DNA from: a candidate division WOR-1 bacterium RIFCSPHIGHO2_01_FULL_53_15
GTDB taxonomy: Bacteria; Margulisbacteria; WOR-1; O2-12-FULL-45-9; XYB2-FULL-48-7
DNA: 64,000 bases
Direction: 5' to 3'
Assembly (NCBI GenBank): GCA_001772335.1
Contig: METM01000021.1
Span: 57,130 to 121,129, forward strand
Positions 31,444 to 49,929 of the stretch are shown here, piece after piece (the stretch's first letter is position 1; each line of letters starts with the position of its first letter). The notes under the pieces are model-generated. The model had not been told where the DNA came from. It made no database searches and saw only the letters and a program-made list of their open reading frames with translations. Made by a program: the position numbers and the translations under genes.

Positions 31444-33645
<2,202 letters not shown>

Positions 33646-33659
33646 TTAACTAACGACTA

Positions 33660-33713
33660 ACGACACGCTCGTCCCGCCTCCGGCGGAACTCGCTACAACT
33701 AACAACTAACGAC
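33660..33713. repeat. 54-bp direct repeat, left copy (partner 34120-34173)
   Basis: acgacacgctcgtcccgcctccggcggaactcgctacaactaacaactaacgac. It matches its partner at 47 of 54 positions with no gaps and contains a small GC hairpin. Confidence 0.85.
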
Positions 33714-34065
33714 TTTTTAGGGCTTGCCGAAAAGCGGACAACTGTTTAACGATGCTCTCGGCTTGCGATATTATTATAGCGCAATTTACTTGATCGATAA
33801 AGCTCCTTTCGAGGGCGATATCGAAGATCGCGACCGTTTCGTTCACCGAGCCGATGGACATCTGGATGAAGCGTTTAAAATCCGCATCCGACCCGCGATC
33901 CGACCCTTCGGCCAAATTCAAGGCGATTGAGGTAGCGGCTCGACGGAGTTGGTTGGTCAGCCCGAATTGCTCATCTTTGGGGAATTTAGAGGAAAGCGAA
34001 TAAATGTTCCCGATATATTTTTTTATATCTTTGTAAACCGGGAAATTTAGGAATCTAAATGACAA
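33706..34065 (-). CDS. four-helix-bundle protein (family of 23S rRNA intervening-sequence proteins)
   Basis: 119 aa with a TTG start. FPKDEQFGLTNQLRRAATSIALNLAEGSDRGSDADFKRFIQMSIGSVNE matches the family pattern as I recall it. Confidence 0.7.
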   Translation of the reverse strand: MSFRFLNFPVYKDIKKYIGNIYSLSSKFPKDEQFGLTNQLRRAATSIALNLAEGSDRGSDADFKRFIQMSIGSVNETVAIFDIALERSFIDQVNCAIIISQAESIVKQLSAFRQALKSR

Positions 34066-34119
34066 TTTAACACGCTCACTTTGTTCGCTACAGCTAACAA
34101 CTAATCGGGGCTACAACTT

Positions 34120-34193
34120 ACGACACACTCGTCCCGCCGGAGGCGGGACTCGCTACAACTGACAACTTACGACTGGCAAGTTGTTAGTCGTAG
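34120..34193. repeat. 54-bp direct repeat, right copy (34120-34173), running into a 16-bp-stem palindrome (34153-34193)
   Basis: acgacacactcgtcccgccggaggcgggactcgctacaactgacaacttacgac. The palindrome is ctacaactgacaactt / acgactggc / aagttgttagtcgtag. A degenerate inverted copy with the gtcccg..cgggac hairpin follows up to about 34245. Confidence 0.8.
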
Positions 34194-34260
34194 GTCGACG
34201 AAGTCGGCCGAGTCGTAGTCCCGCTCCGGGACGTGTTGTCAGTCATTTTACCAAATTGAG

Positions 34261-34288
34261 TGAAATTTTTCAAATGGCGGTTCGATAG
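34261..34288 (+). promoter_or_regulatory. promoter-like motif copy 2: TGAAAT-N16-CGATAG
   Basis: tgaaat ttttcaaatggcggtt cgatag, upstream of the TIM-like/PPDK genes. Confidence 0.45.
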
Positions 34289-34323
34289 AGAAATGGCGGC
34301 TCAAGAGATCGAACGAGATTCAG

Positions 34324-34354
34324 AAGCCCCGGAAAATTGTTCGGGGCTTTTTTT
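34324..34354 (+). terminator. intrinsic terminator-like hairpin in the leader of the TIM-like gene
   Basis: aagccccg / gaaaattgtt / cggggctt, followed by a run of T (7 T in total). There is no plus-strand gene upstream, so this is either an attenuator or the 3' end of a small RNA. Confidence 0.65.
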
Positions 34355-34420
34355 GTAAAAGTTTCTCGACTGAGTTCGAGACAATTTCTCGACAAGCTCG
34401 AAATAAAGGGGGAAAAGAAA

Positions 34421-35182
34421 ATGGCGATCGGCAGAACAAATATCATCGCGGCTAATTTAAAACTTACTTCTGGTTTGGGCAGGAAGGATGTGCGCGGCTA
34501 TCTTGGCCAATTGGGGACGCATCCGGCCCTTCAGTCTTCGAGTACGAGGGTTCGCGTTTATGCCTCTTTCGGAGTTTTACAAGGGCTGAAAAATGACGCG
34601 GCGGGGAGGGTCGCTCTGGGGGTTAAGAATTTTCATCTTGATAATACCCACCCATCGGTCGAAGATCTGCGGCAAATGAAGATCTGGCACGCACTGATCG
34701 GCCGGTCCGGTACGGAGCACGGAGTAACCGATGCGGCTGTGGCCCAAAAGCTGAAGGCCGCACTGGCCATGGACATCTTTGCCACGGTCTGCGTGGGCGC
34801 CAAAACTCATGATGATCTGGCCGAGCAGGTCCGCGAGGGGATAATCCCGGCTTTAAACACCCAAAGCCGCAAGCTTAGCGGGAAAGGGCCCGACCATCGA
34901 TTTGATATCGCTTATCTGCCGGGCCGGCAGCCGTTCCAAATGACCGACATAGAAGCCGCCTTCGCGGTTATCAAAGAAATTCTTTGGGAAGGGGGACACC
35001 AAAGTATAGTTGACCATGGGGATTTTCTATTTGGATTAGGCGGAAGCGTGAAGCCCGAAAATGCCCCGGAACTGCTTCGTCAGCCCTTCATCCACGGCCT
35101 TCTGGTTCGCACAGCTTCCCGAAGTGCGAATAATTTGATCGAAATGATCGATCTGGCGGAGAGGATCGGGAGTAGCGCGTAA
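34421..35182 (+). CDS. triosephosphate-isomerase-fold protein lacking the catalytic His and Glu (TIM-like, probable non-TIM function)
   Basis: ATG 34421 follows AAGGGGG. By-eye alignment to TpiA gives IIAANLKL~GNWKMN (Asn/Lys kept), ALIGRSGTEHG~IIGHSERR (His to Arg), TVCVGAK~LCIGE, IAYLPGRQPF~IAYEPVWAIG (Glu to Leu, loop 6 replaced) and GLGGSVKPENAPELLRQPFIHGLLVRTAS~YGGSVKPENAAEL..DIDGALVGGAS. Confidence 0.6.
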   Translation: MAIGRTNIIAANLKLTSGLGRKDVRGYLGQLGTHPALQSSSTRVRVYASFGVLQGLKNDAAGRVALGVKNFHLDNTHPSVEDLRQMKIWHALIGRSGTEHGVTDAAVAQKLKAALAMDIFATVCVGAKTHDDLAEQVREGIIPALNTQSRKLSGKGPDHRFDIAYLPGRQPFQMTDIEAAFAVIKEILWEGGHQSIVDHGDFLFGLGGSVKPENAPELLRQPFIHGLLVRTASRSANNLIEMIDLAERIGSSA

Positions 35183-35206
35183 GTATTTTTCAAGGAGGAA
35201 AGGAAA

Positions 35207-38200
35207 ATGGTTTACAGAGTAAAGGCCAGAACGGTGGAAGGAAGACGGGTGGCGGGCTTATTGAGTACAGACAAATTCACAACGGCTAGGTTGATGGAGG
35301 CGAGGGCGGCAGAGAGAATCGGGTTCGGCGCTGGGGCTTTAAGTGTGGCGGCTTCGCTCCAGGTGCAACGGCTGGAAACGGCGGCGAAAAGGTCTTTTGA
35401 TGTCCTGCCGGCCTATTTTTTCGGCGACGGCAGATCGGAATTCAGGCCGGATGGCGGTTTTAAGCCGGATAAAGATACTTTAGGCGGCAAAGGCGCAAAT
35501 CTGCACAGCATGACCGAAGCGGGCATCTCGGTACCCCCTGGTTTTACCATTCCGACGACCGAAACCAACAGATACTTTGTTCAGGATAACGGCCAATTAC
35601 CGGATGGCTTAATGGATGTTGTTATGCAAAAAGTGGAAATGGTCGAGGCGGCCACGGGCAATAAGTTCGGCGATGAAGACCGGCCGCAGCTCTTCTCTGT
35701 CCGTTCCGGAGCTAAATTCTCCATGCCGGGGATGATGGACACTATTTTAAATCTTGGCCTGAATAATAAGACTGTCCTGGGCCTGGCCAAAGCGGCAAAT
35801 AATGAACGCTTTGCCTGGGACAGCTACCGGAGATTCATCCAGATGTTCAGCAACGTTGTCCTCGGCGTCAAAAAAGATGTGTTAGAGGAAATATTGAGCG
35901 AGAAGAAGGTCAGCCGTGGCGTGAAGAACGACACTGAATTAACTGTTGATGACTTGAAAGAGCTGGTGGCCGAATATAAGGCGAAATTGAAAGAATTGGG
36001 AGCCGAGGTCCCCCAGGACGAGCGGCGTCAATTGGAACTGGCCATTGAAGCGGTCATGAAATCTTCCAATAATGAGCGGGCCATCGTTTACAAGAGGGAC
36101 TTTAACATTCCCAAGGAGATCGTTTCAGCGGTCAATGTCCAGGCCATGGTCTTCGGCAATATGGGAGAGGACAGCGCGACCGGCGTGGGCTTTACGCGCA
36201 ATCCGGAGACCGGCGCCAATGAATTTTATGGCGAGTTCCTGTCGAACGCGCAGGGCGAAGACGTGGTGGCCGGCGTCCGGACCCCGCTCAAGCTCAAACG
36301 TCTGGCCGAGGTGATGCCCGAGGCCTATGCCCAGCTCAGGGAGGTCACCACGCGGCTCGAAAAATTCTTTCGCAATGTTCAGGATTTTGAGTTCACCATT
36401 GAAAGAGGCAAGCTGTATATGCTGCAGACCCGGGATGGAAAACGGTCCGCCCAGGCGGCCGTAAACATCGCGGTCGATCTGGTTGAGGAGGGGGCGATCA
36501 CAATTGAAGAAGCCCTCATGATGATCGAGCCGGAGCAGATGTCGCACCTGCTTCACCCGGTGTTTGATCCGGAGGAAAAGAAAGTGGCGATCAAGGCGGG
36601 GAGATTGCTGGGCCAGGGGATCAATGCTTCTCCGGGGGCGGCGGTCGGCCGCATAGAATTTACCGCGGAGGCGGTCGTTTTGGCAACCGCCAATGACACA
36701 AAAGACAAAAAAACAAAAGTTATTCTGGTGAGAAAAGAGACGAACCCGGACGATATCTCCGGGATGAAAGCCGCGCAGGGCATTTTGACGGCGACGGGCG
36801 GGGCAACCTCGCACGCCGCCCTGGTTGGCCGGCAGATGGGAAAGCCGGCGGTGGTTGGTTTTAGCGCCGCGGAAGTCGATGAGAAGGCAAGAACGATACG
36901 GATCGGGGATCGGGTCTTCAAAGAAGGGGATATTTTATCAATTGACGGCACGACGGGCGAAGTGTTCGCGGGGGAGATCATGACGCTCCCTTCCGAGATC
37001 AAGCGGGTCGTCGAAGGCCAGCTGAAGGCCGAGGACTCGCCGGTTTATCAACGCTACATGAAAGTCCTGGGCTGGGCGAAAGAGGCGGCTGAGCTGGAAG
37101 TTTGGGCGAACGCGGATACCGCCAAAGATGTCAAAATTGCCGATGCTTTTGAAGCGCAGGGGGTCGGGTTGGCCAGGACAGAGCACATGTTTTTCGGCGA
37201 CGACCGCATTCCTTACATGGTGGCGATGATCCTGTCGGAAACCCCGGCGGAGAAACAGCCGTTCCTTGACAAAATATTGGCAATGCAGAGGTCTGATTTT
37301 ATCTCTCTGTTTGAGGTGATGAAGGGGCGGCCGGTGACCATCCGAACGATCGACCCGCCTCTGCATGAGTTCCTGCCCAAAACCGACGCTGATATCGACA
37401 AACTGCTCTCTTCTATCCATTCGGTTGCCCTGGTGGAACAACTCGAGCGCAAGCTGGGGATTTCAAAAGAGGGGGTTACACGAGATGAATTGGGTGAAGA
37501 GCTCTGGCTGGCGCTCAGGGAAAAAGTGAAGCGGCGTTCCGCCGAATTGCATGAGGCCAACCCCATGATGGGGCATCGCGGCACCCGCCTCGGCATCACC
37601 AATCCGGAAATTACCGCCATGCAGGCGCGCGCGATCTTTGAAGCGGCGTTCGCGGTTGCCCGCAAAGGGATCCCCGTTAAACCAAAGATCATGATCCCGC
37701 TGGTCGGTTTTGCGGCCGAATTGAAAGACCAGGCCACGATAGTGAGGGAAGTCCATGCTGAATTGGAAAAAGAGCACGGCCCGATCGCTTTCCAGCTTGG
37801 CACGATGATCGAGGTGCCCCGGGGCGGTTTAACCGCGGACGAGATCGCCCTCCTGGCGGAATTCTTCTCTTTCGGGACCAATGACCTGCATCAATATACG
37901 CTGGGCTTCAGTCGTGACGACGCCGGCAAGTTTATCGCTCCCTACATTGACAAGGGGATCATTCCCGCGGACCCGACCCAGAAGATCGATCAGCCCGGCA
38001 CCGGCAAGCTGATGTGGCTGGCGGTCCAGCTGGGGAGAGAAACCCGGCCGGATCTGGAGATCGGAATTTGCGGCGAACATGGCGGGGAGCCGACTTCAGT
38101 GGAATTCTGCCACGCGCTTGGCCTGAACTATGTCAGCGCATCTCCTTACCGCATCCCGGTGGCGCGAATGGCCGCGGCGCAAGCCTGGATAAAAGAGAGG

Positions 38201-38257
38201 AGAATAGAAGACGAATTGAGAAAGTCGGCGAAGGTTCTGCAGGAAGCAAGCAAATAG
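35207..38257 (+). CDS. ppdK: pyruvate, phosphate dikinase (with ~65-aa N-terminal extension)
   Basis: 1016 aa with all three domains. ATP-grasp: LGGKGANLHSMTEAGISVPPGFTI and FSVRSGAKFSMPGMMDTILNLGLN. Swivel: GGATSHAALVGRQMGKPAVVG, with the His codon at 36812. PEP/pyruvate barrel: GLARTEHMFF, FSFGTNDL and GICGEHGGEP. Confidence 0.9.
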   Translation: MVYRVKARTVEGRRVAGLLSTDKFTTARLMEARAAERIGFGAGALSVAASLQVQRLETAAKRSFDVLPAYFFGDGRSEFRPDGGFKPDKDTLGGKGANLHSMTEAGISVPPGFTIPTTETNRYFVQDNGQLPDGLMDVVMQKVEMVEAATGNKFGDEDRPQLFSVRSGAKFSMPGMMDTILNLGLNNKTVLGLAKAANNERFAWDSYRRFIQMFSNVVLGVKKDVLEEILSEKKVSRGVKNDTELTVDDLKELVAEYKAKLKELGAEVPQDERRQLELAIEAVMKSSNNERAIVYKRDFNIPKEIVSAVNVQAMVFGNMGEDSATGVGFTRNPETGANEFYGEFLSNAQGEDVVAGVRTPLKLKRLAEVMPEAYAQLREVTTRLEKFFRNVQDFEFTIERGKLYMLQTRDGKRSAQAAVNIAVDLVEEGAITIEEALMMIEPEQMSHLLHPVFDPEEKKVAIKAGRLLGQGINASPGAAVGRIEFTAEAVVLATANDTKDKKTKVILVRKETNPDDISGMKAAQGILTATGGATSHAALVGRQMGKPAVVGFSAAEVDEKARTIRIGDRVFKEGDILSIDGTTGEVFAGEIMTLPSEIKRVVEGQLKAEDSPVYQRYMKVLGWAKEAAELEVWANADTAKDVKIADAFEAQGVGLARTEHMFFGDDRIPYMVAMILSETPAEKQPFLDKILAMQRSDFISLFEVMKGRPVTIRTIDPPLHEFLPKTDADIDKLLSSIHSVALVEQLERKLGISKEGVTRDELGEELWLALREKVKRRSAELHEANPMMGHRGTRLGITNPEITAMQARAIFEAAFAVARKGIPVKPKIMIPLVGFAAELKDQATIVREVHAELEKEHGPIAFQLGTMIEVPRGGLTADEIALLAEFFSFGTNDLHQYTLGFSRDDAGKFIAPYIDKGIIPADPTQKIDQPGTGKLMWLAVQLGRETRPDLEIGICGEHGGEPTSVEFCHALGLNYVSASPYRIPVARMAAAQAWIKERRIEDELRKSAKVLQEASK

Positions 38258-38286
38258 GCCAGGGCGGTCAGGTCTCTGTGAAGAAA

Positions 38287-40965
38287 TCAGCGTTCAGGGA
38301 AGGGGACTCCGTTTCTTTCGCAAAGTTCTATTAGGCGTTGTACATCCCAGTTGGCGTAAAAATCGTAGAACTTGGTGTAAGGCTGGGCCAGCAGACCAAG
38401 AACTTCAGCGACATACCGATCGCTCTTCGGGGGAATGGCCTTTTTCACATCGGCCAGACTGATTCCGGTCAATTTTAATGTCATGAATTCGCGGACATTG
38501 CCGGTGTGCAGGAAAAGTGAATTGTCTTTCAGCCCCGTCTTTTCGATCTCCTTGCGCGCCCGATTAACCTCTCGCTCGCCGACCATCTCCAGCAAGCCGC
38601 GATATTTTTGGCACAAGACCCATTCATTAATGAGCTGAGCGATTTCCTTCGGGGAAAATACCCGCCAGAAAGCGACCGGCATTTCACCCGCCAGAAAGCG
38701 GCCGAGCATGAACGAGCCGGCGCTGTAGCCGGAGCGTTTTTCTTTTTCACAGCGGGCAAGGGCGATCTTATAAAATTTGAGCTTTTTATCCAAAGTTAAA
38801 TAATCAAAGATCACGAACTGGCTGTGGTGGTCCCCCAGGCCGGCGGCCAGGACGCCGTCAACATATGCCTCGGGATTGGCTTCGAACCAGGCGTTGGCCA
38901 ACGCGGCTTTTTTCTCCTCTTTTTTTTCGTTTCTCATCTCGACCAGGATCAGCCGGATCAGCGAGCCGAGATCAAGAATATTGGAGGCCTCTGACGCGCC
39001 GCCGGCCAGTTTTTGATATTTTCTGTAGGCGGCGGCGAGCGACTTAAAGAGCGATTCTTCGGCCGCTGTCAGATCAATTTTTTCACCCTCGAGATAGCGC
39101 ATGAAGCGGGCGGGGGTGAATTTGGCTTGCCCGAGCAGCAACACGGCGTGTTTGCTGGAGAGGGTGACCCAGTCACCCTCGTTGATCATTTGGCCGTCGG
39201 CTGACTTTAGCTTCTTGTTTCTGGCGTCCAGTGAAACGCCGCTCTCTTCAAGATTGAGGAGCGCTGGTATTCCGTGACCCCGCGAGGTTTGAACGACGTG
39301 GATCGCCGCCGGCGTCAGGCTGACGAGGCCGTCGACCCGGCTAAGAACAGGGGTGTCGGTCGGCGCAAATGTTTCTTTAGCCAGAATGACCTTTTCGCCA
39401 TTTTCTTTGGCGGTCACGGCGGCCGAGGCGGAGAAATAGACGCGTCCGCTGACGGCGCTCCTGGGCAGGACCGAAGCCCCTCGCGCGAAGAACGGCAGTT
39501 TGGCCAGCGATCCCGGATCGATCGCTTCCGACTCGACCTGCCTGATGTGATATGGTTTGATCAGTTCTCTGATCCGCGCCTCGGCGATCGTTCCCTGCCG
39601 GAACAACTCCATGACCGAGAGCAGGGTCCCGATACCGGTCAGTTCGGCCGGGTTGAGCTGGAGGAGGGCAAAGAGGTCGCTTTCGGCGGCGAACTCGACC
39701 GTGACCGGCGCCCGCAGGTATTTCTCAAGCGCGATGAGCTGCGGAGCGAAATGATAGACGGCGGGGAATTTTTCCCTGATCTCGGCCCGGCCAAGAAAAT
39801 CGGTCGTCTCGGGAGTGAGCACGCCTCCCGTCATGATCTCCTCGCCAAAGACGGAGCGGGCGCTCTCAAGCGACATGCCGGTCCCGGTCCGGGCGTGGCG
39901 GCTGAGCAGAACCCCGGCGTAGGAGCGCCGGCTGAGCGCGCTGCAGACCATCTTCTGGAAGATCATCGTCGGATACTGCTCCTCGCCGCGCATAAAGGTG
40001 CGCAGGAGGTCCAGGTTGTCGCCATAATCTTCGTAGGCCCTGGCCAGGAAGAAGACGACCTGATAATAAGGATCGGTGATGAGCCGCGGGTCCTTCCGCC
40101 TGATCATCGTCATCAGCTCATCAACCAGGGTCTGGTTGTCTTTGTGGCCGAGATCGGGCCTGACTTTGTGGCGGATCTTCTCGTATCCGGCCGGATCAAG
40201 CGCCCGCAGGATATTGCGGAGATTGTTCAGGATGATCCGGACGGCCGCTTCGTTGCCGTACCGCCGGGTCAGCGCGTCATAAGCGCTTTCGACGACGCCG
40301 GCGTTAAGATAAGTCGGCATGACGCCGGGGATGTAGGCCGGCATGGCGCAGCGCATCGCCGCCAGGAGAGGGTCTTCGGAGTGGCCGAATTGCTGGCCGG
40401 TCAGCTGTTCCAGGTTATACACCGCGTCGTGGATGTGCTTTTCGCGCTCTTTCAGGGTGAGCCGATATGCCCTGGCCGTCAGGAAACTAAAATCAGGAAC
40501 AGGATAGCCCTGCTTGATGAGGGCAAGGAGGACGGCGCCCTTGTTGCTGATCAGCTCTTCAGGATAGGCGGCGTCGGTCGTCGACGGGATGACGAATTCG
40601 TTCTCAGTGAAACGTACGCCGGAGAAATGAGGCGAGATCGCCGCCAGGGCGGTCTCTGCCTTGCTCCGGAGCTCTTTGTGCGCGCCAGTGTCGCCCTCTT
40701 TGGCTTTCAGTATCAGATCGAGATGGTCAAGCGCTCCCTGCGCTTGGTCGAATTCGGCGGAATCAAAATAGCGCAAAAAAGGGATGTCGGTGTCGCGGAC
40801 GCTGACGGCGGCCGGTCGGCCGGCATTATTAATGTAATCGACCTCGGCCGGCAGGTGGCCCGGCAGGGCGGCCGGTATCCGCCCGGCTGATCTCGTCGCT
40901 AATCTGTCATATAATGTACGGCGATTGACATAGCCGCCGCGCACCTGCAGGATCTGCCTGATCAT
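38287..40965 (-). CDS. PPDK-derived protein: ATP-grasp + phosphohistidine-swivel-like domains, with the PEP/pyruvate barrel replaced by an unrelated C-terminal region
   Basis: 892 aa. NKGAVLLALIKQGYPVPDF~GGKGANL..G.PVPPGF. PLLAAMRCAMPAYIPGVMPTYLNAGV~FSVRSGA..MPGMMDT.LNLGL. FGEEIMTGGVLTPET~GEDVVAGVRTP. SLTPAAIHVVQTSRGHGIPALL~GGATSHAALVGRQMGKPAVV, with the His codon at 39300-39298. None of the RTEHMF, GTNDL or CGE motifs is present. Confidence 0.65.
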   Translation of the reverse strand: MIRQILQVRGGYVNRRTLYDRLATRSAGRIPAALPGHLPAEVDYINNAGRPAAVSVRDTDIPFLRYFDSAEFDQAQGALDHLDLILKAKEGDTGAHKELRSKAETALAAISPHFSGVRFTENEFVIPSTTDAAYPEELISNKGAVLLALIKQGYPVPDFSFLTARAYRLTLKEREKHIHDAVYNLEQLTGQQFGHSEDPLLAAMRCAMPAYIPGVMPTYLNAGVVESAYDALTRRYGNEAAVRIILNNLRNILRALDPAGYEKIRHKVRPDLGHKDNQTLVDELMTMIRRKDPRLITDPYYQVVFFLARAYEDYGDNLDLLRTFMRGEEQYPTMIFQKMVCSALSRRSYAGVLLSRHARTGTGMSLESARSVFGEEIMTGGVLTPETTDFLGRAEIREKFPAVYHFAPQLIALEKYLRAPVTVEFAAESDLFALLQLNPAELTGIGTLLSVMELFRQGTIAEARIRELIKPYHIRQVESEAIDPGSLAKLPFFARGASVLPRSAVSGRVYFSASAAVTAKENGEKVILAKETFAPTDTPVLSRVDGLVSLTPAAIHVVQTSRGHGIPALLNLEESGVSLDARNKKLKSADGQMINEGDWVTLSSKHAVLLLGQAKFTPARFMRYLEGEKIDLTAAEESLFKSLAAAYRKYQKLAGGASEASNILDLGSLIRLILVEMRNEKKEEKKAALANAWFEANPEAYVDGVLAAGLGDHHSQFVIFDYLTLDKKLKFYKIALARCEKEKRSGYSAGSFMLGRFLAGEMPVAFWRVFSPKEIAQLINEWVLCQKYRGLLEMVGEREVNRARKEIEKTGLKDNSLFLHTGNVREFMTLKLTGISLADVKKAIPPKSDRYVAEVLGLLAQPYTKFYDFYANWDVQRLIELCERNGVPFPER

Positions 40966-40974
40966 AGCACTTTC

Positions 40975-41002
40975 TTATCGGCCAAACCGGCGGGAAATTT
41001 CA
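40975..41002 (-). promoter_or_regulatory. promoter-like motif copy 5 (minus strand): TGAAAT-N16-CGATAA
   Basis: The minus strand reads tgaaat ttcccgccggtttggc cgataa gaaagtgct ATG. The -10-like element ends 9 nt before the start codon at 40965, so the transcript would be nearly leaderless. Confidence 0.45.
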
Positions 41003-41035
41003 TTCAGAAGCGCTCGAGAAACGCCGAACTTTACT

Positions 41036-41063
41036 TGAAATTTTGTTTTATGGCCGCAGATAT
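41036..41063 (+). promoter_or_regulatory. promoter-like motif copy 4: (T)TGAAAT-N16-AGATAT
   Basis: cttgaaat tttgttttatggccgc agatat, 15 nt before ATG 41079. Confidence 0.4.
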
Positions 41064-41078
41064 ATAGCTGGGAGAAAC

Positions 41079-43589
41079 ATGATAAAGATCATTGAGCAGT
41101 CCCGGCCATATTTTTCGCGGAGCGCCATGTTGCGCGGCCTCAGCGAGCGGCTGGCGGGGAGAAAGACACCGGCAGCGAGCTTCGCGTTCTCGGTGCGCTT
41201 TGAGGGCGGCCGGGCTGGCGCTGCTGAGGTTAACCTGCGGGCTTACGACGCGCTCTATTTCAGCAACCCATATTCTCCCGAGGCGGCCGAACACCTCGAC
41301 CTTATCCTGCAGGCGCGGCGGGGCAATAACCGGGCTCAAGCGGCCCTGCGCAAAATGGACCAAGAGGCGCTTGACCGGCTGGGCCAGGCGAAGCCGGAGA
41401 GATCCCGGCCGAATAGGTTTGACGAATTTCTGCTTTCTTCCGGCGCTCCTCACGAGAGCAGCCGTCAGGAGGCGGGGAACAAGGGTTATAACCTCCTGGC
41501 TCTCAGCGCGCAGGGCTTTCCGGTCCCGTCTTTTTGCATTATCAAGGCCGGCTACCGGAAGGCGTTTATTGGGATCAACTGGTCAAAAAGAAACGCCGTC
41601 AGGCAATCAGCCCTGACGAAGCTGGAAGCCCTGACCGGCAAAAAATATGATAATGACGCCAGGCCGCTGCTGTTTGCCATTCGCTCCTGCTTGCCGGAAA
41701 GCTTGCCCGGGATCTTGCCGACCTATCTGGCGGTCGGCGCGACGCAAAGATCGCTCCCCGGCCTGGTCCGGCTTTACGGCGAGCGGACTGCCTATGAGCT
41801 GCGCGCCAATCATTTAATGAGTTTGCTGCTGGCGGCCGAGCCCATCCGCTATCAGCCGTTGCTTGACGGGCTGGGACAGGAAAGGAGCGGCATTCGGGCG
41901 CTGGTTTTTCGGCTCGAAAGGCTGGCCGAAGCGGACGAGCGGAGCCGTTTTTTTACCCCGGAGAGATGCGTAAATTTCTTGATCGACAGGATCGAACTGT
42001 TCTGCGGCGATAATCAGGAGATGCTGCGCTCACTGATGGACGGGGCGCAAACCGAACCGGCGATCATCCTGCAAGAGATGGTCGTGGGGAAAATAGCCGT
42101 CAATTCTTTTGCCGGTGTTTTTAACACGCGGGAGCCGGGCGGCGGGGAAAGGCGCCAGCTGCAGGTCCGCCCCGACGCTTTTGGCGAGGAGATCATGACC
42201 GGCGGCGCCGAGGTTGAAGAGATAACTTTTGCCGAGAGAGCCGTACTGCGGAAAAGGCACAGGGAGATCTACGAGATCATTGACTGTCTGATCGCTCTGG
42301 AGGCGGCCGAGGGCGCGCCGCTGACTTTTGAACTGACTTCCGAGCGCGGCATGATTGCCGTACTCCAGATGGATAAGACCTCATTGTCCGGTGTCGCCGC
42401 GCTCAGGTCGGCGGTCCGTCTCCTGCGGGAGGGCAAGATCAAGCGGAGCGGCCTGCTGGAGATCGTCAAGCCGTTCCATTTGCGCCAGCTCTTCTCCGAC
42501 ACGGTCGAAGGCAAGGACTCGCTGCGGCCTTTTGCCGGCGGCCTGAGCATTTTACCGCGCGGCGAGGTCTGCGCCCGGGCGTATTTTTCCGCGGCCAGCG
42601 CCCTGGCGGCGCGTGAGCGGGGAGAGAAAGCGATCATGATCCGGGAGATTTTTCAGCCAGCGGATGTCGAGGCGATGGTCGAGATGAGCGGGCTGGTGAG
42701 CGTCTCCAGGTCGCCGGTGCACGTGGCGCAGATCGCCAGGAAATACGGTATCATTGCCCTGGTCGGGCTCTCTGACAGCGGAGCGGTCCCGGTGATCAGG
42801 GAAAATGAACTTGTTTTGCCGGATGGCCGCCGGATCGGCGAAGGCAACTTTGTTGTCATCTCGAGCGAAGAGCAGAGGTTGTACCTTGGCGAAGCGAAAA
42901 CCGTCCCTTCAGGCATGACGGAGAGCAAAGAGCTCTGGCCGGAGCTTGTTTACTTCAAGGATGAGCTTACGCGTTTTGCGGCGGCGGAGGTCGCTGACGG
43001 CCAGGCGCTGGACAATCTGGTTGATCTGCTCTTGATATTCGGCGAAACGGAAGCGGCGCGGCAGCTGGTTAACCGCTGGTTCAGGGAAAGGACGGAAAGT
43101 TTCCTGTCGTATTTTGCGGCCACTCGGATCGGCCGCCACCGCAGCCGCCTCCAGCTTTTCAGCCTGCTTGATTTTCCCTTCAACCAGGCGGAGCTGATCA
43201 GGCGGTTGTCCGGGCGGCCAAAGAATGCGGACGCCGAAGGCATGTTCATCATCGGCCGGGCGATGGTCTGGGTCGAAGAAAAGCTTGGTGAGTCCGCCCT
43301 CAACCGGCTCTGCAGCGGTTTTTCCGGCGAGTTGACCCGGGCTATTCGGGCTGAGATGAAGCGGGCCAGGGAATATCTCGGCGTCGCGCGCGCCGAAAAG
43401 CCGGCGACCGATGGCCGGGCTTTAGGTAATTCGATGGAAAGAATTCTTCGGGCGGTTTTGGAAAGAAAAGAATCGGGCCTTTCAGAGGAAGAGGCGGACC
43501 AGGTGATCTGGCTCGCCATGCAGGACATCGATCCATTGCACAAGCCGCACAAGACGATCGCGCGCGCTCTCGGCGAATTAAAAAAATAA
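41079..43589 (+). CDS. PPDK-derived protein, paralogue of 38287-40965 (ATP-grasp + swivel-like, no PEP/pyruvate barrel)
   Basis: ATG 41079 follows GGGAG. Contains NKGYNLLALSAQGFPVPSF, PLLFAIRSCLPESLPGILPTYLAVGA, FGEEIMTGGAEVEE and VSVSRSPVHVAQIARKYGIIALVG (His codon at 42720). Its N-terminal extension shares HLDLIL.A..G with its paralogue. The C-terminal ~290 aa is unrecognised. Confidence 0.65.
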   Translation: MIKIIEQSRPYFSRSAMLRGLSERLAGRKTPAASFAFSVRFEGGRAGAAEVNLRAYDALYFSNPYSPEAAEHLDLILQARRGNNRAQAALRKMDQEALDRLGQAKPERSRPNRFDEFLLSSGAPHESSRQEAGNKGYNLLALSAQGFPVPSFCIIKAGYRKAFIGINWSKRNAVRQSALTKLEALTGKKYDNDARPLLFAIRSCLPESLPGILPTYLAVGATQRSLPGLVRLYGERTAYELRANHLMSLLLAAEPIRYQPLLDGLGQERSGIRALVFRLERLAEADERSRFFTPERCVNFLIDRIELFCGDNQEMLRSLMDGAQTEPAIILQEMVVGKIAVNSFAGVFNTREPGGGERRQLQVRPDAFGEEIMTGGAEVEEITFAERAVLRKRHREIYEIIDCLIALEAAEGAPLTFELTSERGMIAVLQMDKTSLSGVAALRSAVRLLREGKIKRSGLLEIVKPFHLRQLFSDTVEGKDSLRPFAGGLSILPRGEVCARAYFSAASALAARERGEKAIMIREIFQPADVEAMVEMSGLVSVSRSPVHVAQIARKYGIIALVGLSDSGAVPVIRENELVLPDGRRIGEGNFVVISSEEQRLYLGEAKTVPSGMTESKELWPELVYFKDELTRFAAAEVADGQALDNLVDLLLIFGETEAARQLVNRWFRERTESFLSYFAATRIGRHRSRLQLFSLLDFPFNQAELIRRLSGRPKNADAEGMFIIGRAMVWVEEKLGESALNRLCSGFSGELTRAIRAEMKRAREYLGVARAEKPATDGRALGNSMERILRAVLERKESGLSEEEADQVIWLAMQDIDPLHKPHKTIARALGELKK

Positions 43590-43592
43590 CCT

Positions 43593-43620
43593 GAAATTTC
43601 TTAAACGGCCTATCGAAAGA
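43593..43620 (+). promoter_or_regulatory. promoter-like motif copy 3: TGAAAT-N16-CGAAAG
   Basis: tgaaat ttcttaaacggcctat cgaaag, immediately after the upstream stop codon and 27-42 nt before the next start. Confidence 0.4.
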
Positions 43621-43646
43621 AAAGAGGGACATAGAACAGGAATTGC

Positions 43647-46600
43647 ATGGGAGGAAAGACAATGATTAGAGTTGGAGAACGAGTTGACCGTCTGGCGACC
43701 AGGGTGATGACGCCTATCGTTTCTAAAATGGCGGGCAACCGCACGCTTGGCAATTTAGCAATGAGCGCCTCTTACCGGACAGCCCTGGCGGCTGATCTCG
43801 CTGGCTTCAGATCGTGGCAGATGGGGAGCGCCCTGCAAAGAGCGGCCGATCTGCAAGGGGTCGAAAACTATTCCGCCCTCATGAACCGTTATGCGCCTTT
43901 ATCATCGTCTTTCCTCCCGGGACCGCTGCAGCCTGCCAGCGGGTCGTACCTGGAAAGAGGCTGGGTCATAGCCAACCACAAATTAGTTTCTTTTCATGCC
44001 GCTTTTATTTCTTCGGTCTTGAGTTTGTCTGATGATGTCCAGGGGAAACTGGAAACCCTGAAATTCATGTTCCTCAGCACCGAAACGGTCGTTTCATCGG
44101 CCATGCTTTATCTTTCCTGGCACGCCGGCATTGCTATCCACGAAATGGGCCACTACCTGACCGCGGCTAAATTGACGGCGCTGAACAAGGCTTCTCAAGA
44201 AGCAGCTGATAGCATGAAAGACAAAGGGTTGTTGTCGAAAGTCGGCTGGTACTCGAAAATGTTCATGACCATCCCCTGGGGAAAATTTGAAGGCGTCAAA
44301 AATGACGGCGGCAATTATTCGCCGGATTCGCCTTACAACCTCGCGGTCTCCGCGGCGGGCCCGAGATGGAGTTCATACCTGGCGCTTGTCGCCCTGCCGG
44401 CCGCGACCGCGGCGATCTCGGCCGGGCTTATCTTTGGCAGTGAGACAGCCACATACATTGGCCGGTTCCTTCTGGGGCCTGGCGTGGTTGGCTTGCTCGA
44501 CCGGCTCCTGGCCGATCCCGGAAAATTGAAGGAATTTAACACCCGCGAGGAGCGGGCGAAGGTGGCGGCGGCAGAAGCAACGCGCCGAGCGGCCGAAATG
44601 GGCGACCTGGCCGAGGAACTAAGCAATATCAGGCAGACGCTGATAAATTCCCGCATGGTCACGATTACTCTGGCCGACGGATCGAAAGTTTCCGCCCCCT
44701 GGCAGTGGAGGAATTGCGCGATGGGCGGCCGCCACACCGAGAAGGAATATCCGGAGAGCAATATCAGCATGCAGGAAAGCATGTTCATCCCCCTCTCGGC
44801 CAAAACTTATGAGGATGCCCAGGAAATGACCCTAAAACTGCAAACCAGATTAAAAGAGATCATTGAAAAGTCGCCCGGCGGCAAGGTCATGGGGATCGGG
44901 TTGGAGGGCGGGATAGCGCCTTATCTTGAGAAAGAAGCGGGCGACAAGGTGCCGGAGCAAAGATTATGGAGGTTGATGAAGCAGGCGATCCTTGATTGCG
45001 GCTACATCCCGGGCAAAGATGTCGCCATCGCGCTTGACCCGGCCGCTTCGGAGCTGGAAAATGCCTATCGCAAACAGAACAAAATGCCCGATTCGGTCGG
45101 CAGGTATTATTTCTGGCGCGGCAAAGAGAATATCTCCATGTCGCGGGATGAAATGCTGGCGCTTTACAAAGAGGCGATCGAAAAAGACGGCGTGCCGATC
45201 ATTTCCATTGAAGACGGTTTTGGTGAAAGGGACCATGAGGGCTGGGGATTGTTGATGAAGGAAATGGGGGACCGGCTCTTTGTCATCGGCGACGACCTGG
45301 TGACGACCAATGACGCCATCATCGAAGAGGGAGCGCGCAAAGGCCTCATCAACGCGGTTCTGGTCAAACTCAACCAGATCGGCACGGTTTCCGAAGCGGT
45401 CCTGGCCATGCTGACCGGTATGGCTTACGGGGCGGAGATGATCATTTCTCACCGCTCCAAATCACCCAACGATCCGTTTGAAGCCGACGTCTCAACGGCC
45501 ATGAACGCAGTCGGCCAGAAAACCGGCGGCGGCGCCAACACGGAGCGTTTGCAAAAATACGGCCGGGTCGTCGAAATATTATCGTTTGCCGAAAACACCG
45601 GCCGGCCTTTGACCGGATCGGAAAAACAGGAATCCCTCAGATTGCTGCAGGAACTGGTCAATGAATTGACCGGTCGGACTGACGTCTCCGTTCTGCCTGA
45701 GATGGCCGATCGCGACATTTCTGAATTAATGTTCCGCTTGCTGGCGATCGAATCGGTGATCGGCACAGAAGAGCCGACTAACGCCGGCATCCCATCCGCC
45801 AAAGCCACGCTCTTATTGAGCCGCAGCGGGGGCGTCCGCTTTACCGGTTCAACTCCGCTCGGGACCTCGGCCGGTGAAACCGAAGCGATCCATCTGGTTG
45901 ACAGCATCATCGCGCCGGATGAGGTCACGGCTAAATATCCCGACCTGTTCAATGTCGTTCCCGAAGATAAGACGCTCCGCTTTAAGAAGGATGTCAGGCG
46001 GGGGTATGTTATCGCCAAAAATGACGCGGCTTTACTGGTCATGTTTGATCGGGCCAAACGCTATGACGGCAAGGGTTGTCTGACTGCCGCCGGCAACATT
46101 GAGACCATTTTGGCCAAAGCTTTCAAGGGCAAGCGGGTCTCCAGCCTGGGCAGCCTGGCCGAGATCGACGCCGAGCTTCTGCGGCTGGAGAAAGAACAAG
46201 CTGTGGCCAGGGGAATATTGGCTGCGGATGCGCCAGTTGACGATCAGATCCATGTCATGCAGCGGAAGGGAACGATCGGCATGAATGCCATCCTTTCCAT
46301 GTCGCTGGCTCTTGGCCGGGCATTAGCGGCCAGCCAGGGCAAGGAATTGTGGCAGTTGATCCGTGAAAGCGCAATGGATGTGATGGCCAAATTTGTAGCC
46401 GCCCATTCGGCCGACCCGGCCAAAAAAGATGTCCGGGCCCTGAAAGCGATGAATATTGACGATCTGCGAGTACTTTTCCGCGAAACTGCAAAGCGGTTAA
46501 TTGCCGAGGGCAAAGAAATCCATGGCGTCCTGCGCGAGCTCCTGCCCGTTTATGCCTTGCCGGAAGACGTCCGGGCGCGCGCCATTTTTACCGACCGGCT

Positions 46601-47180
46601 CGTCATTAGCCAGCTGGGCAAACTGAGCCAGCGGCGGATGGCAATTCTCAATAAGATTTTTGAGATCGAAGGTTCGCTCGTGTATAACGTTGAGTTGCGC
46701 AATCTGGGCGAAAAAGAGGTTCCCTATCTTCATGTCCGGCCCGGCTCAAAACAGGGCTTGGGTTCCGCCTATGTCTCACGGGCGGATGCGGGCTTTACTG
46801 CCGCCTCTACCCACAAGGCCGATACAATCATTCAATCCGGCATTTGGATCAGCAACCTGGGCCTTGATGGGCAAAGCGAAGCATTTGGCAATCGTCACTA
46901 CGTGGCCATTCCGCACAGAACGGGAGACAAAACCGGTGAGATCACCTTGTTATTTGGCCGCTTCAGGAAAAATGTGTCATTGGCGGAGCGGAAGGAATTG
47001 TTTGCCGATGAGATCGGGAGTGTTTTACGTTTTATCGGAGACGAGAAGATCGACATAACCGATCCGATCATGCGTGAAAAGATTGATGCGGCATTATTGC
47101 TGATCCCGCTCCACGAGTTTTTCGAGCGCGATAAAAAGGGCCTTTACGTTAAATATGTTAAGCCGGCGCTGACAAGCTAA
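43647..47180 (+). CDS. 1177-aa multidomain protein: hydrophobic HExxH N-terminal region + circularly permuted enolase + unknown C-terminal domain
   Basis: The N-terminal third has LSWHAGIAIHEMGHYLTA (HExxH in a hydrophobic stretch) and a later LLGPGVVGLLDRL, both reminiscent of M50. The enolase barrel comes first: AMGGRH (from 44715), MQESMF, GLEGGIAP, LDPAASE (D at 45036), SIEDG (E at 45210), IGDDL (45291), VKLNQIGT (K at 45366), SHRS (H at 45450) and QKTGGGANTER (K at 45519). The enolase N-domain follows: PLGTSAGETEAIHLVD (S at 45867), RYDGKG and GMNAILSMSLALGRA. The start may be ATG 43662, which follows GGAGG. Confidence 0.75.
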   Translation: MGGKTMIRVGERVDRLATRVMTPIVSKMAGNRTLGNLAMSASYRTALAADLAGFRSWQMGSALQRAADLQGVENYSALMNRYAPLSSSFLPGPLQPASGSYLERGWVIANHKLVSFHAAFISSVLSLSDDVQGKLETLKFMFLSTETVVSSAMLYLSWHAGIAIHEMGHYLTAAKLTALNKASQEAADSMKDKGLLSKVGWYSKMFMTIPWGKFEGVKNDGGNYSPDSPYNLAVSAAGPRWSSYLALVALPAATAAISAGLIFGSETATYIGRFLLGPGVVGLLDRLLADPGKLKEFNTREERAKVAAAEATRRAAEMGDLAEELSNIRQTLINSRMVTITLADGSKVSAPWQWRNCAMGGRHTEKEYPESNISMQESMFIPLSAKTYEDAQEMTLKLQTRLKEIIEKSPGGKVMGIGLEGGIAPYLEKEAGDKVPEQRLWRLMKQAILDCGYIPGKDVAIALDPAASELENAYRKQNKMPDSVGRYYFWRGKENISMSRDEMLALYKEAIEKDGVPIISIEDGFGERDHEGWGLLMKEMGDRLFVIGDDLVTTNDAIIEEGARKGLINAVLVKLNQIGTVSEAVLAMLTGMAYGAEMIISHRSKSPNDPFEADVSTAMNAVGQKTGGGANTERLQKYGRVVEILSFAENTGRPLTGSEKQESLRLLQELVNELTGRTDVSVLPEMADRDISELMFRLLAIESVIGTEEPTNAGIPSAKATLLLSRSGGVRFTGSTPLGTSAGETEAIHLVDSIIAPDEVTAKYPDLFNVVPEDKTLRFKKDVRRGYVIAKNDAALLVMFDRAKRYDGKGCLTAAGNIETILAKAFKGKRVSSLGSLAEIDAELLRLEKEQAVARGILAADAPVDDQIHVMQRKGTIGMNAILSMSLALGRALAASQGKELWQLIRESAMDVMAKFVAAHSADPAKKDVRALKAMNIDDLRVLFRETAKRLIAEGKEIHGVLRELLPVYALPEDVRARAIFTDRLVISQLGKLSQRRMAILNKIFEIEGSLVYNVELRNLGEKEVPYLHVRPGSKQGLGSAYVSRADAGFTAASTHKADTIIQSGIWISNLGLDGQSEAFGNRHYVAIPHRTGDKTGEITLLFGRFRKNVSLAERKELFADEIGSVLRFIGDEKIDITDPIMREKIDAALLLIPLHEFFERDKKGLYVKYVKPALTS

Positions 47181-47221
47181 ATTGTTTAGAAACTGTTCCA
47201 AATAACATGGGAGGGGAAAAA

Positions 47222-47428
47222 ATGCTAAAGGAATTCCGCTGCAAATTCTGCCACCGCCTGCTGGCCAAAGTCGGCGAGGGATCGAAAGTCGAGATCAAGT
47301 GCCCCAAATGCAAAACGCTGAGCCTCTATAATGAAGAAACGGTCGTCGTCTACGAAGTGCCCGAGAACAACGTCACCAAAAAGATCATCGAGCGCGGCTG
47401 GGTCAAGTACGACGTGATCCAGAACTGA
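47222..47428 (+). CDS. Com-family zinc-ribbon protein
   Basis: ATG 47222 follows GGGAGGGG. FRCKFCHRLLAKVGEGSKVEIKCPKCKTLSLY matches the Mu Com pattern RCxxCxKLL.....EI.CP.CK. Confidence 0.55.
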   Translation: MLKEFRCKFCHRLLAKVGEGSKVEIKCPKCKTLSLYNEETVVVYEVPENNVTKKIIERGWVKYDVIQN

Positions 47429-47446
47429 GTGGAAGAAAGATGAAAA

Positions 47447-48748
47447 ATGAGCATTAAGCTAAATCCGACCCATTTAAGGCATTTTCGACCGATAAACACC
47501 ATATCAATCGGTCGGGGAGCGACCGTTGCGTTAAAGGTTGATTTTAACGTGACGATAAAAGACGGGAAGATTCAGAACCCGGAGAAAATTAGAGCCGCTT
47601 TTAGGACTATTGACCATTTACTGGCGTCGGGCGCAAATATTGTAATTTATACTCATCTGGGCCAGCCCAAGAAGGGCTGTGAGGCAAAGACATCCCTGAA
47701 CCTCGTGGCTGATTTCTTGGCCGAAAAATACGGCAGGGACACGGTTATTAACGGGGAATCGTTAATTACGCCGGATGAAAACGGTTTTCTGCCGACGGAA
47801 CAATATATTAATAAGGCCGTGCGAGAAGCCGCGGTCGGCCTGGGCGGCAAGGCCAGGATATTGTTGATGCCGAACGTGAGATGGGCGGCTTATGAACAGG
47901 CCAAACCGACCGATCCCGGTCATCAAGCACTGGCTCAAGCCATGCTGGGACTCTCCGATGGCTTTGCAGTTTTTGACGCCGCGGCGGTCTGGAATAAGGA
48001 GCATGCTTCGATCACAACCATGCTCCGGCTGGCCGGCCTGAACAATATCGCCTGGGGTTTCCATGCTCATGAAATGGCTGAACTGCTGGTGAGAAGGTTT
48101 ACCGGCGACATACCGCGGCCGTATGTTCTGCACATTTCCGGCACAAAGGCGGATAAAATGGGTTATATCCTTGATTTTCTGGGTAACCCGCAAATTGACT
48201 CCATTTTAGTTTCGGGCAATATCGCCAACGGTTTGATGGAGGTTTTGGGCAGGTCTGTCGGCGCCGCGGCGGGAACCTACGGCGCGCCCGAGTTGGAAAA
48301 AGCGAGAAGAATCGTAAACCATCCGCGCTTCGGCGGTGCGGTTTCCCTGCCGGTTGATTTTATTATTGCCAGACCGGACGGGTCTGACCGCCGGTATTTG
48401 GCTCAAGGAGAAATTATCCCCGAAGGCTTCAGGCAGTTTGATATCGGCAGAGAGACCGCTTCTCTCTACGCGAAAATACTGGCTACGGCCGGCCTGGCTG
48501 TTAACTCCGGTGTCCCGGGCGCTTTTGACTTTGGCAACCCGCCGTTTGAAGAGGGGACAAAGGTTGTCCTGCCCGGCTTTGCAAGAGCCAAGCAGAGCAT
48601 TAATCTCGGCGGTGACGGCGGGATCGCCGCGGAAAAATACCTGACGCCGGAAGAGCTGGCGCGGACCGAAGTTTTAGTCGCGGGCGGTTCTTTCCTGCAC
48701 GCCATGGCGCACCAGACCTTCCCCGTGGCCGAAGTATTCTTAAATTAA
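47447..48748 (+). CDS. phosphoglycerate-kinase-fold protein, strongly divergent (PGK-like)
   Basis: 433 aa. ALKVDFNVTIKDGKIQNPEKIRAAFRTIDHLLASGANIVIYTHLGQPKKG~RVDFNVP..G.I..D.RI.A.LPTI..L...GA.V...SHLGRP. Also PNVRW~ENVRF, DAAAVWNKEHAS~DAFGTAHRAHAS, ISGTKADK~GGSKVSDK, NSGVPGAFDF~WNGPMGVFE, LGGDGG~GGGDT and VAGGSFLHAM~STGGGA.LE. Confidence 0.7.
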   Translation: MSIKLNPTHLRHFRPINTISIGRGATVALKVDFNVTIKDGKIQNPEKIRAAFRTIDHLLASGANIVIYTHLGQPKKGCEAKTSLNLVADFLAEKYGRDTVINGESLITPDENGFLPTEQYINKAVREAAVGLGGKARILLMPNVRWAAYEQAKPTDPGHQALAQAMLGLSDGFAVFDAAAVWNKEHASITTMLRLAGLNNIAWGFHAHEMAELLVRRFTGDIPRPYVLHISGTKADKMGYILDFLGNPQIDSILVSGNIANGLMEVLGRSVGAAAGTYGAPELEKARRIVNHPRFGGAVSLPVDFIIARPDGSDRRYLAQGEIIPEGFRQFDIGRETASLYAKILATAGLAVNSGVPGAFDFGNPPFEEGTKVVLPGFARAKQSINLGGDGGIAAEKYLTPEELARTEVLVAGGSFLHAMAHQTFPVAEVFLN

Positions 48749-48828
48749 AAAACTGACAAGTTAATCAAAAGTCGATTGGAATTACGGCTTTTATTTTTTG
48801 GGGAAAATAAAAAAAGGAGGAAAAGAAA

Positions 48829-49896: not shown

Positions 49897-49929
49897 GTTT
49901 GCGATAAGTCAGCAGGAGGGATTTTGGCC

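Follow-up and report, generated by a model that had tools for sequence, protein, structure and literature searches.

A degenerate, probably non-catalytic paralogue of triosephosphate isomerase encoded beside a pyruvate phosphate dikinase gene in a candidate division WOR-1 bacterium

Triosephosphate isomerase (TIM) serves as the standard example of a perfect enzyme and of loop-gated catalysis. Its canonical form, TpiA (Pfam family TIM, PF00121; structures 4iot and 4k6a from E. coli and 1yya from T. thermophilus), is the closest described system for the gene considered here, TIMx. This gene lies at positions 34421 to 35182 on the plus strand of a 64,000-nucleotide stretch of DNA (the window) from contig METM01000021.1, positions 57,130 to 121,129, in assembly GCA_001772335.1 of candidate division WOR-1 bacterium RIFCSPHIGHO2_01_FULL_53_15 (assembly G000). 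The open reading frame (ORF), the Pfam match, the alignments, a structural model and a tree identify its product as a degenerate TIM family member of 253 amino acids, belonging to a small divergent clade that is unnamed in databases and is called TIM2 here. TIMx is collinear with TpiA over its full length and belongs to the same (beta/alpha)8 fold, and the two proteins have in common Asn10 and Lys12, Ser96, Cys126, and the GGS of loop 7 with the KPEN helix start that follows it. TIMx differs from TpiA in its catalytic residues and in most of the loops around them. The explanation that seems moderately probable is that TIMx is an extra TIM paralogue kept by selection, a non-catalytic “pseudo-TIM”; a weaker suggestion is that it binds an anionic metabolite or a partner as an accessory protein.

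Two other kinds of protein are useful for comparison. Engineered monomeric and loop-deleted TIMs (monoTIM and its derivatives, from the Wierenga laboratory) are said to have a truncated interface loop 3 and rebuilt loops around the active site while keeping the catalytic His and Glu and a low activity. TIMx resembles a natural counterpart of monoTIM, with a shortened loop 3 and altered active-site loops on a barrel, but it lacks the catalytic His and Glu. The AdoMetDC prozyme of trypanosomes is a catalytically dead paralogue that partners or regulates an active enzyme (PMC6221367). Like the prozyme, TIMx is a second copy of a metabolic enzyme, stripped of catalytic residues yet apparently maintained; unlike the prozyme, it comes with no evidence of pairing with an active TIM. 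No naturally occurring dead TIM (TIM pseudoenzyme) was described in the literature searched.

The existence of the gene and its family are well supported. TIMx is present on five other contigs from independent assemblies, four of them identical across their overlap with the window and the fifth showing 8 mismatches in 2,794 bp, 1 of which is silent and within the TIMx gene, and this rules out an assembly artefact. A sequence-only reading of the window had proposed a TIM family barrel with both catalytic residues replaced, and the motifs that it quoted (AANLK, IGRSGTEHG, AYLPGRQPFQM, LGGSVKPENAPEL and GLLVRTAS) are all found in the stop-free translation. Against the Pfam TIM model the protein scores 56.5 bits (gathering cut-off 20.1) over model positions 2-243 of 245, and a Pfam scan of the protein returned no other family. 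A hidden Markov model (HMM) built from 52 TIMs, with the query excluded, gives 120 bits. The Pfam score is nevertheless the lowest among all full-length TIM matches in 41 genomes, and the TIM equivalog models of NCBIfam gave 20-41 bits against cut-offs of 255-883 (the best 41.1 versus 293), far short of every one of them.

The structural evidence points to the same family. AlphaFold2, given a 53-sequence alignment, predicted a confident TIM barrel of 8 strands and 8 helices, with a predicted local distance difference test score (pLDDT) of 87.3 and a predicted template modelling score (pTM) of 0.88. When that model was compared with the PDB using Foldseek, only TIMs were among the 50 best matches listed (TM scores of 0.65-0.82, with the top matches at 0.75-0.82). 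The proposed family assignment is borne out by the full-length Pfam match, the TIM-only structural matches and the placement of TIMx in the tree, which together rule out a different TIM-barrel family.

The catalytic columns were read from three alignments: a phmmer alignment with the solved TIMs 3kxq, 4nvt and 1yya, a MAFFT alignment with 16 relatives, and the 52-TIM HMM made without the query. All three agree that the GHSE of TpiA is GRSG in TIMx, with His95 replaced by Arg and Glu97 by Gly, and that AYEP is AYLP, with Glu165 replaced by Leu (Leu166 in TIMx numbering). In the lid region, iaYEPvwAigtg stands opposite IAYLP-----G of TIMx. Loop 6, the lid (PVWAIGTG), is deleted, with 5 amino acids fewer than in canonical TIM and 11-13 fewer than in TIM2. 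Loop 3, which interdigitates at the dimer interface, lacks the WxEDGSF/GAFTGE part that includes Thr75, a deletion of 5 amino acids relative to canonical TIM. Two residues are missing after loop 4, and a further 8 are missing after CVG, and with them the conserved CxGE glutamate (Glu129). Tyr208 is replaced by Phe (Phe204). Asn10 and Lys12 are retained as N12 and K14, within AANLK and in invariant columns.

In TIM the closed lid is held by a latch made of Tyr208 and the CxGE glutamate, and Thr75 reaches across to touch Asn10 and Glu97 of the partner subunit. Because of these contacts, the losses in TIMx appear to form two coherent modules, one made up of the lid and its latch and the other of the dimer loop and its partner, Glu97. 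The phosphate-gripping loops have also changed. Loop 7 keeps GGS, with a 2-amino-acid insertion just before it, and in loop 8 a nearly invariant Gly has become Arg230 (LVRTAS in place of LVG(G/T)AS). Only loop 7 of the three gripping loops is intact, so the earlier proposal that the fold and the phosphate site are both retained holds for the fold, given the predicted barrel, and finds only partial support for the phosphate site. Its proposal that isomerase chemistry is probably lost fares better. The profile alignment places Arg at His95 and Leu at Glu165, and with both base and electrophile replaced the chemistry has almost certainly been lost. Single replacements of Glu165 or His95 in TIM cost orders of magnitude in kcat.

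Relatives of TIMx are few and distant. A word-indexed homologue search with TIMx alone returned only the self-match, and HMMER, run exhaustively against 1.84 billion cluster representatives that stand for 15 billion proteins, yielded 4 proteins at E < 1e-10, TIMx included. A profile built from five sequences collected about 14 TIM2 clusters at 350-467 bits, with canonical TIMs at 190 bits or less; TIMx scored 319 bits and is itself one of the 5 building sequences. The members named are P0136 (Candidatus Saganbacteria DeMMO3_43), P0138, P0002, P0003 and P0139-P0146. TIM2 is monophyletic in the IQ-TREE phylogeny, with support of 100/100, and TIMx is nested within it. TIMx shares with the clade its MAIG start, GLL-x-TAS and the C-terminal MIxxAERxG, and it keeps the TIM2-specific residues D176-I177, L227, T231, P143 and A246.

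The rest of the clade retains the catalytic machinery. N-x-K, GHSE and (Y/W)EP are kept in 14 of 14 other TIM2 proteins, which also carry an extended lid with the signature EPxxAIxGFA (AI(A/E/R)GFA). GHSE, (Y/W)EP and this lid are lost in TIMx alone, and none of the other 14 members shares its catalytic losses. Four genomes of small size (0.7-1.0 Mb), which bear the labels Patescibacteria, Parcubacteria or Saccharibacteria, have TIM2 as their sole TIM; it is therefore a working isomerase there, which makes the ancestor a real isomerase. In the Saganbacteria genomes G001, G044 and G046, TIM2 is a second copy beside canonical TpiA (320-350 bits). G001 is Candidatus Saganbacteria bacterium DeMMO3_43, of the same genus as the TIMx genome, and this makes the organism of the window a member of the Saganbacteria. 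The terminal branch of TIMx, at 1.31 substitutions per site, is the longest in TIM2 and six times the median of 0.22. Compared with the branches of its nearest clade-mates, P0136 (0.55) and P0138 (0.33), it is longer by a factor of 2.4-4. On this tree the evolution of TIMx looks clearly accelerated, and the protein appears as a single-species outlier of TIM2. On the contig of P0138, the closest TIM2 relative (locus L020, 5044-7916), a gene for a Com-type zinc ribbon protein is followed by an intact TIM2 and then by a 495-amino-acid FBPase_3 of the fructose-bisphosphate (FBP) aldolase/phosphatase type.

Several features of the gene argue for maintenance. The base composition at each codon position is what coding genes of the host genome normally show. 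At a rough estimate, some 4% of random single-base substitutions turn a sense codon into a stop, and a neutral branch as long as that of TIMx would be expected, by the same rough reckoning, to put stops of the order of ten into its 253 codons; none is present. The five TIMx-specific indels in the MAFFT alignment are all multiples of three. At the 73 columns that are at least 92% conserved among the 14 other TIM2 proteins, TIMx keeps 44 residues and loses 29. The losses fall in 24 of 39 catalytic-face loop columns and in 5 of 34 columns elsewhere (Fisher p = 4.6e-5, with loop classes that were assigned after the alignment was seen). The absence of stops, the in-frame indels and the clustering of losses on the catalytic face of a preserved scaffold lead to the conclusion that TIMx is probably a maintained protein and not a drifting pseudogene.

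A dead TIM raises the question of where the cell obtains its isomerase activity. The assembly carrying TIMx (1.56 Mb in 33 contigs, 85% complete) contains no other PF00121 match. It does contain GpsA, which needs dihydroxyacetone phosphate (DHAP), and a gap-pgk pair on contig C29 with no tpiA after it. Searches of this assembly found neither class II fructose-bisphosphate aldolase (FBA) nor phosphofructokinase (PFK). A Pfam search for class I FBA is uninformative because the control genomes gave no matches either. A synteny test for a deleted tpiA is also uninformative, as the flanks of tpiA in relatives are too poorly conserved; the C29 gap-pgk pair and a region of contig C22 are without tpiA. 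Canonical TIM is present in 23 of 24 high-quality relatives, with scores of 317-350 bits. In G001 the canonical tpiA adjoins the genes for pyruvate kinase and FBA, and the genome carries a TIM2 as well.

A search with the G001 TpiA led to a likely answer in the form of protein P0255, which is 90% identical to it. Orthologues in G000 and G001 show similar identities (enolase 88%, iPGM 90% and an AAA gene 93%), and this match in distance supports the P0255 locus as belonging to the TIMx species. The locus reads pyruvate kinase, CoA-binding protein, TpiA, class II FBA, PFK and a second PFK; secA lies 4 kb from it and prfA 6 kb. It shares three assemblies with TIMx: ERZ28563803 (scaffold_304 and scaffold_318), ERZ4903072 and SRR2090153. 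The sequencing runs in which this genome occurs (SRR3989338, SRR3989344 and SRR2090153) resemble, we presume, the Rifle aquifer series.

The locus and the assembly complement one another. None of the 21 genes at the P0255 locus has a counterpart in G000, and the same is true of the genes of an overlapping 11-kb contig. The essential genes secA and prfA are among those missing: secA was not found in G000, as confirmed with a Pfam model, and a search for prfA gave only an RF2-like match and a 47-amino-acid fragment on contig C13. The tetranucleotide profile of the P0255 locus correlates with that of G000 at r 0.986. For 20-kb chunks of G000 itself the mean is 0.964 (sd 0.032), and the controls gave 0.93-0.95 for G001 loci and 0.24-0.42 for unrelated TIM2 loci. 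The simplest reading is that a scaffold with tpiA, fba, pfk, pyk, secA and prfA was left unbinned from G000, and it is quite likely that the organism has a normal TpiA. There is good support for inferring that TIMx does not catalyse the TIM reaction and that a housekeeping TpiA is encoded elsewhere in the genome.

The start of TIMx is likely ATG 34421 and not the upstream TTG 34337, because its homologues begin with MAIGK and a Shine-Dalgarno-like GGGGGA run lies 7 nucleotides upstream (read from the sequence as AAGGGGGA, 34407..34414, plus strand). RNA folding predicts a terminator-like hairpin at 34323..34354 on the plus strand, 66 nucleotides upstream of the ATG, with an 11-bp stem (arms 34323-34333 and 34340-34350), a 6-nucleotide loop and a following U7. 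No plus-strand gene precedes this hairpin. Set against shuffled sequence, the full leader shows no extra stability (z = -0.89), and a consensus scan called no plus-strand promoter in it and did not list the hairpin either. The gene had been described as the first behind a promoter-like motif and a leader terminator. TIMx is indeed first in a co-oriented run behind a terminator-like hairpin; the promoter part of that description found no support in the consensus scan. A word search located two exact copies of TTTCTCGAC, 23 nucleotides apart, between the hairpin and the start codon (34362..34393, plus strand). One other exact copy occurs in the window, and at one mismatch the word is not enriched across the window (19 matches versus 20.6 expected). 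The pair is a possible operator, and the hairpin a possible attenuator. Rfam gave only sub-threshold noise on the leader, apart from a tRNA at 33570-33642. This minus-strand tRNA (67.9 bits) is overrun by an enolase ORF of 467 amino acids with a TTG start (32224-33627). The true enolase start must lie downstream of the tRNA, and Pfam Enolase_N begins at residue 43 of the ORF.

The gene that follows TIMx encodes PPDK2 (35207..38257, plus strand), a bona fide pyruvate phosphate dikinase (PPDK) paralogue of 1016 amino acids on the evidence of its Pfam domains and of its match to TIGR01828 (1172.6 bits, cut-off 843). It begins 24 nucleotides past the TIMx stop with its own AGGAGG and is the probable operon partner of TIMx. 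A second PPDK, on contig C16 (33989-36622), is 57% identical to PPDK2. The PPDKs of relatives are 48-55% identical to it, and no close PPDK2 orthologue was found in 14 relatives.

The run continues with two PPDK-derived proteins and a 1177-amino-acid protein with enolase domains in reverse order. Further along are a PGK-like protein, a weak class-I-aldolase-like protein, an FBPase-like protein, an AAA_14/DUF4143 gene and a normal iPGM. The PGK-like protein (47447-48748; PF00162, 167 bits) has Gln and Glu at two positions where solved PGKs have 3-phosphoglycerate-binding arginines (THLGQP and NKEHAS). It retains the motifs of the nucleotide domain, and the canonical gap-pgk pair is on contig C29. 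The AAA_14/DUF4143 ATPase (51557-52729) matches the PADLOC candidate defence family PDC-S01 at 310 bits and lies directly before iPGM in both G000 and G001, with 93% identity. PADLOC matches this gene and none of the glycolytic look-alikes, and the idea of the island as a defence system was rejected.

A comparison of window positions 33643-51420 with the corresponding region of G001 (contig C58, L025, 1870-9177) sets shared flanks against unlike interiors. The flanks are about 90% identical, with eno on one side and the AAA_14/DUF4143 gene and iPGM on the other, and the interiors differ wholly. The G000 interior holds TIMx, PPDK2, the two PPDK-like genes, the enolase fusion and the PGK-like, aldolase-like and FBPase-like genes. 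The G001 interior holds a malic-enzyme-like gene, a PGK-like gene (484 amino acids), an intact TIM2, an uncharacterised 360-amino-acid protein and a PFK-like gene. Conserved flanks around entirely different interiors indicate that the eno-iPGM interval is an island of variable content, made up of diverged central-carbon enzyme copies.

The proposed explanation for TIMx begins with descent from TIM2, whose members work as isomerases elsewhere. In one Saganbacteria species the protein would have shed its base, its electrophile, the lid module (loop 6, the CxGE Glu and Tyr208) and the loop-3/Glu97 dimer pair, and would have kept the (beta/alpha)8 scaffold, Asn10/Lys12 and the GGS loop. Isomerase activity would come from the canonical tpiA of the tpiA-fba-pfk locus that is absent from the 85%-complete assembly. 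The open, lid-less C-terminal face would bind an anionic metabolite or a partner, and TIMx would have an accessory or regulatory part in the work of PPDK2, with which it is probably co-transcribed, or in that of the island around it, with no turnover of triose phosphate. Binding of an anionic ligand is suggested because the basic residues K69, R95, R230 and R234, as mapped on the sequence, have been gained on the lid-less face near K14. The alternative that TIMx is still the sole triosephosphate isomerase of the cell, working with non-canonical residues, could appeal to its status as the only PF00121 match in the assembly, to the presence of the DHAP-requiring GpsA, to the C29 gap-pgk pair without tpiA behind it, and to the position of the gene among gluconeogenic ones (PPDK, enolase, iPGM, aldolase-like and FBPase-like). 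It is very improbable, given that base, electrophile and lid are all gone when established enzymology finds even single replacements costly. The assembly that lacks a second TIM also lacks secA, prfA, class II FBA and PFK, and these genes accompany a canonical tpiA on a scaffold that comes from the same samples and matches in composition.

Loss of the isomerase reaction would also be expected of a functionless relic, a TIM2 copy made redundant by canonical TpiA that is drifting and has so far escaped deletion or interruption. Only a single species shows the degenerate state, the branch is the longest in the clade, the Pfam score is the lowest of the full-length matches, and several functional loops have gone at once. 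The want of stops where roughly ten would be expected speaks against drift, as do the five in-frame indels, the persistence of scaffold and clade-signature residues while losses fall on the catalytic face, and the good Shine-Dalgarno sequence and tight spacing to an intact PPDK gene. A relic is accordingly rather unlikely, and what probability it keeps is owed to the fact that no second genome shares the degenerate state. Somewhat less unlikely, and still a minority view, is a neofunctionalised enzyme with a new active site that carries out another reaction on an anionic substrate, as a step in a pathway outside glycolysis that the island encodes. New chemistry evolves readily on TIM barrels, the scaffold of TIMx seems to be kept by selection, and the island encodes a PGK-like protein with an altered substrate site along with the weak class-I-aldolase-like and FBPase-like proteins. 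The aligned active-site columns offer no candidate acid/base pair in place of His and Glu, however, and the state is absent from every other genome, unlike most real enzyme families. The wholly different island contents of two congeneric genomes also argue against one fixed pathway.

Several points weigh against the account of TIMx as a selected accessory protein beside a housekeeping TpiA. The confidence of the AlphaFold2 model probably owes in part to the family alignment, and the Fisher test used loop classes drawn up with the alignment in view. The nearest relative among the 1.84 billion cluster representatives is 44% identical, too distant to show that the degenerate state, and with it a new function, is conserved. 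The population contigs are 99.7-100% identical with a single synonymous change, and they give no dN/dS signal. The link between the tpiA scaffold and G000 is circumstantial, being made of co-occurrence, complementarity and composition, and one gene of the tpiA region is on a contig of another NCBI bin, GCA_001771345.1. The basic pocket and the role as a PPDK accessory are weakly suggested by sequence mapping and gene order.

A wider and more tentative proposal concerns the island itself, and it has perhaps one chance in several of being right. In this proposal the eno-iPGM island of Saganbacteria would be a fast-turnover set of re-purposed TIM-, PGK-, aldolase-, FBPase-, PFK-, PPDK- and enolase-derived copies that together make up a system outside glycolysis, which could be a new phosphometabolite pathway or a sensing and regulatory module at the phosphoenolpyruvate (PEP)/pyruvate node. 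TIMx would then be a lid-less, probably monomeric ligand-binding subunit acting with PPDK2. If the proposal is true, TIMx would be the first pseudoenzyme in nature to have arisen from the textbook “perfect enzyme.” As a natural barrel that selection seems to have kept and that has shed base, electrophile, lid with latch and dimer loop together, TIMx would show the potential of the TIM scaffold for reuse and would offer a natural counterpart to engineered monoTIM and loop-deletion work. The apparent confinement of the degenerate state to one species limits the significance of TIMx, and the wider island, with its diverged glycolytic paralogues, is the more intriguing of the two.

There are also practical consequences for annotation. 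Relatives of TIMx are automatically named “triosephosphate isomerase,” and reconstructions may credit the organism with a false TIM or conclude that it has an aberrant one. Metabolic reconstructions from this metagenome-assembled genome, which is without tpiA, class II FBA and PFK, will under-call upper glycolysis.

A third weak TIM paralogue, of about 303 amino acids and scoring 72-77 bits, occurs in the Saganbacteria genomes G032 (contig C13, 96-3709; locus L035) and G033 (contig C17, 1441-2352; locus L034). It keeps FNLK, NHSE and AYEP, and its lid, RFAIQVGD, is unusual. Its neighbours in G032 are a PGK-like gene of 472 amino acids on one side and an FBA-II-like gene of 365 amino acids on the other.

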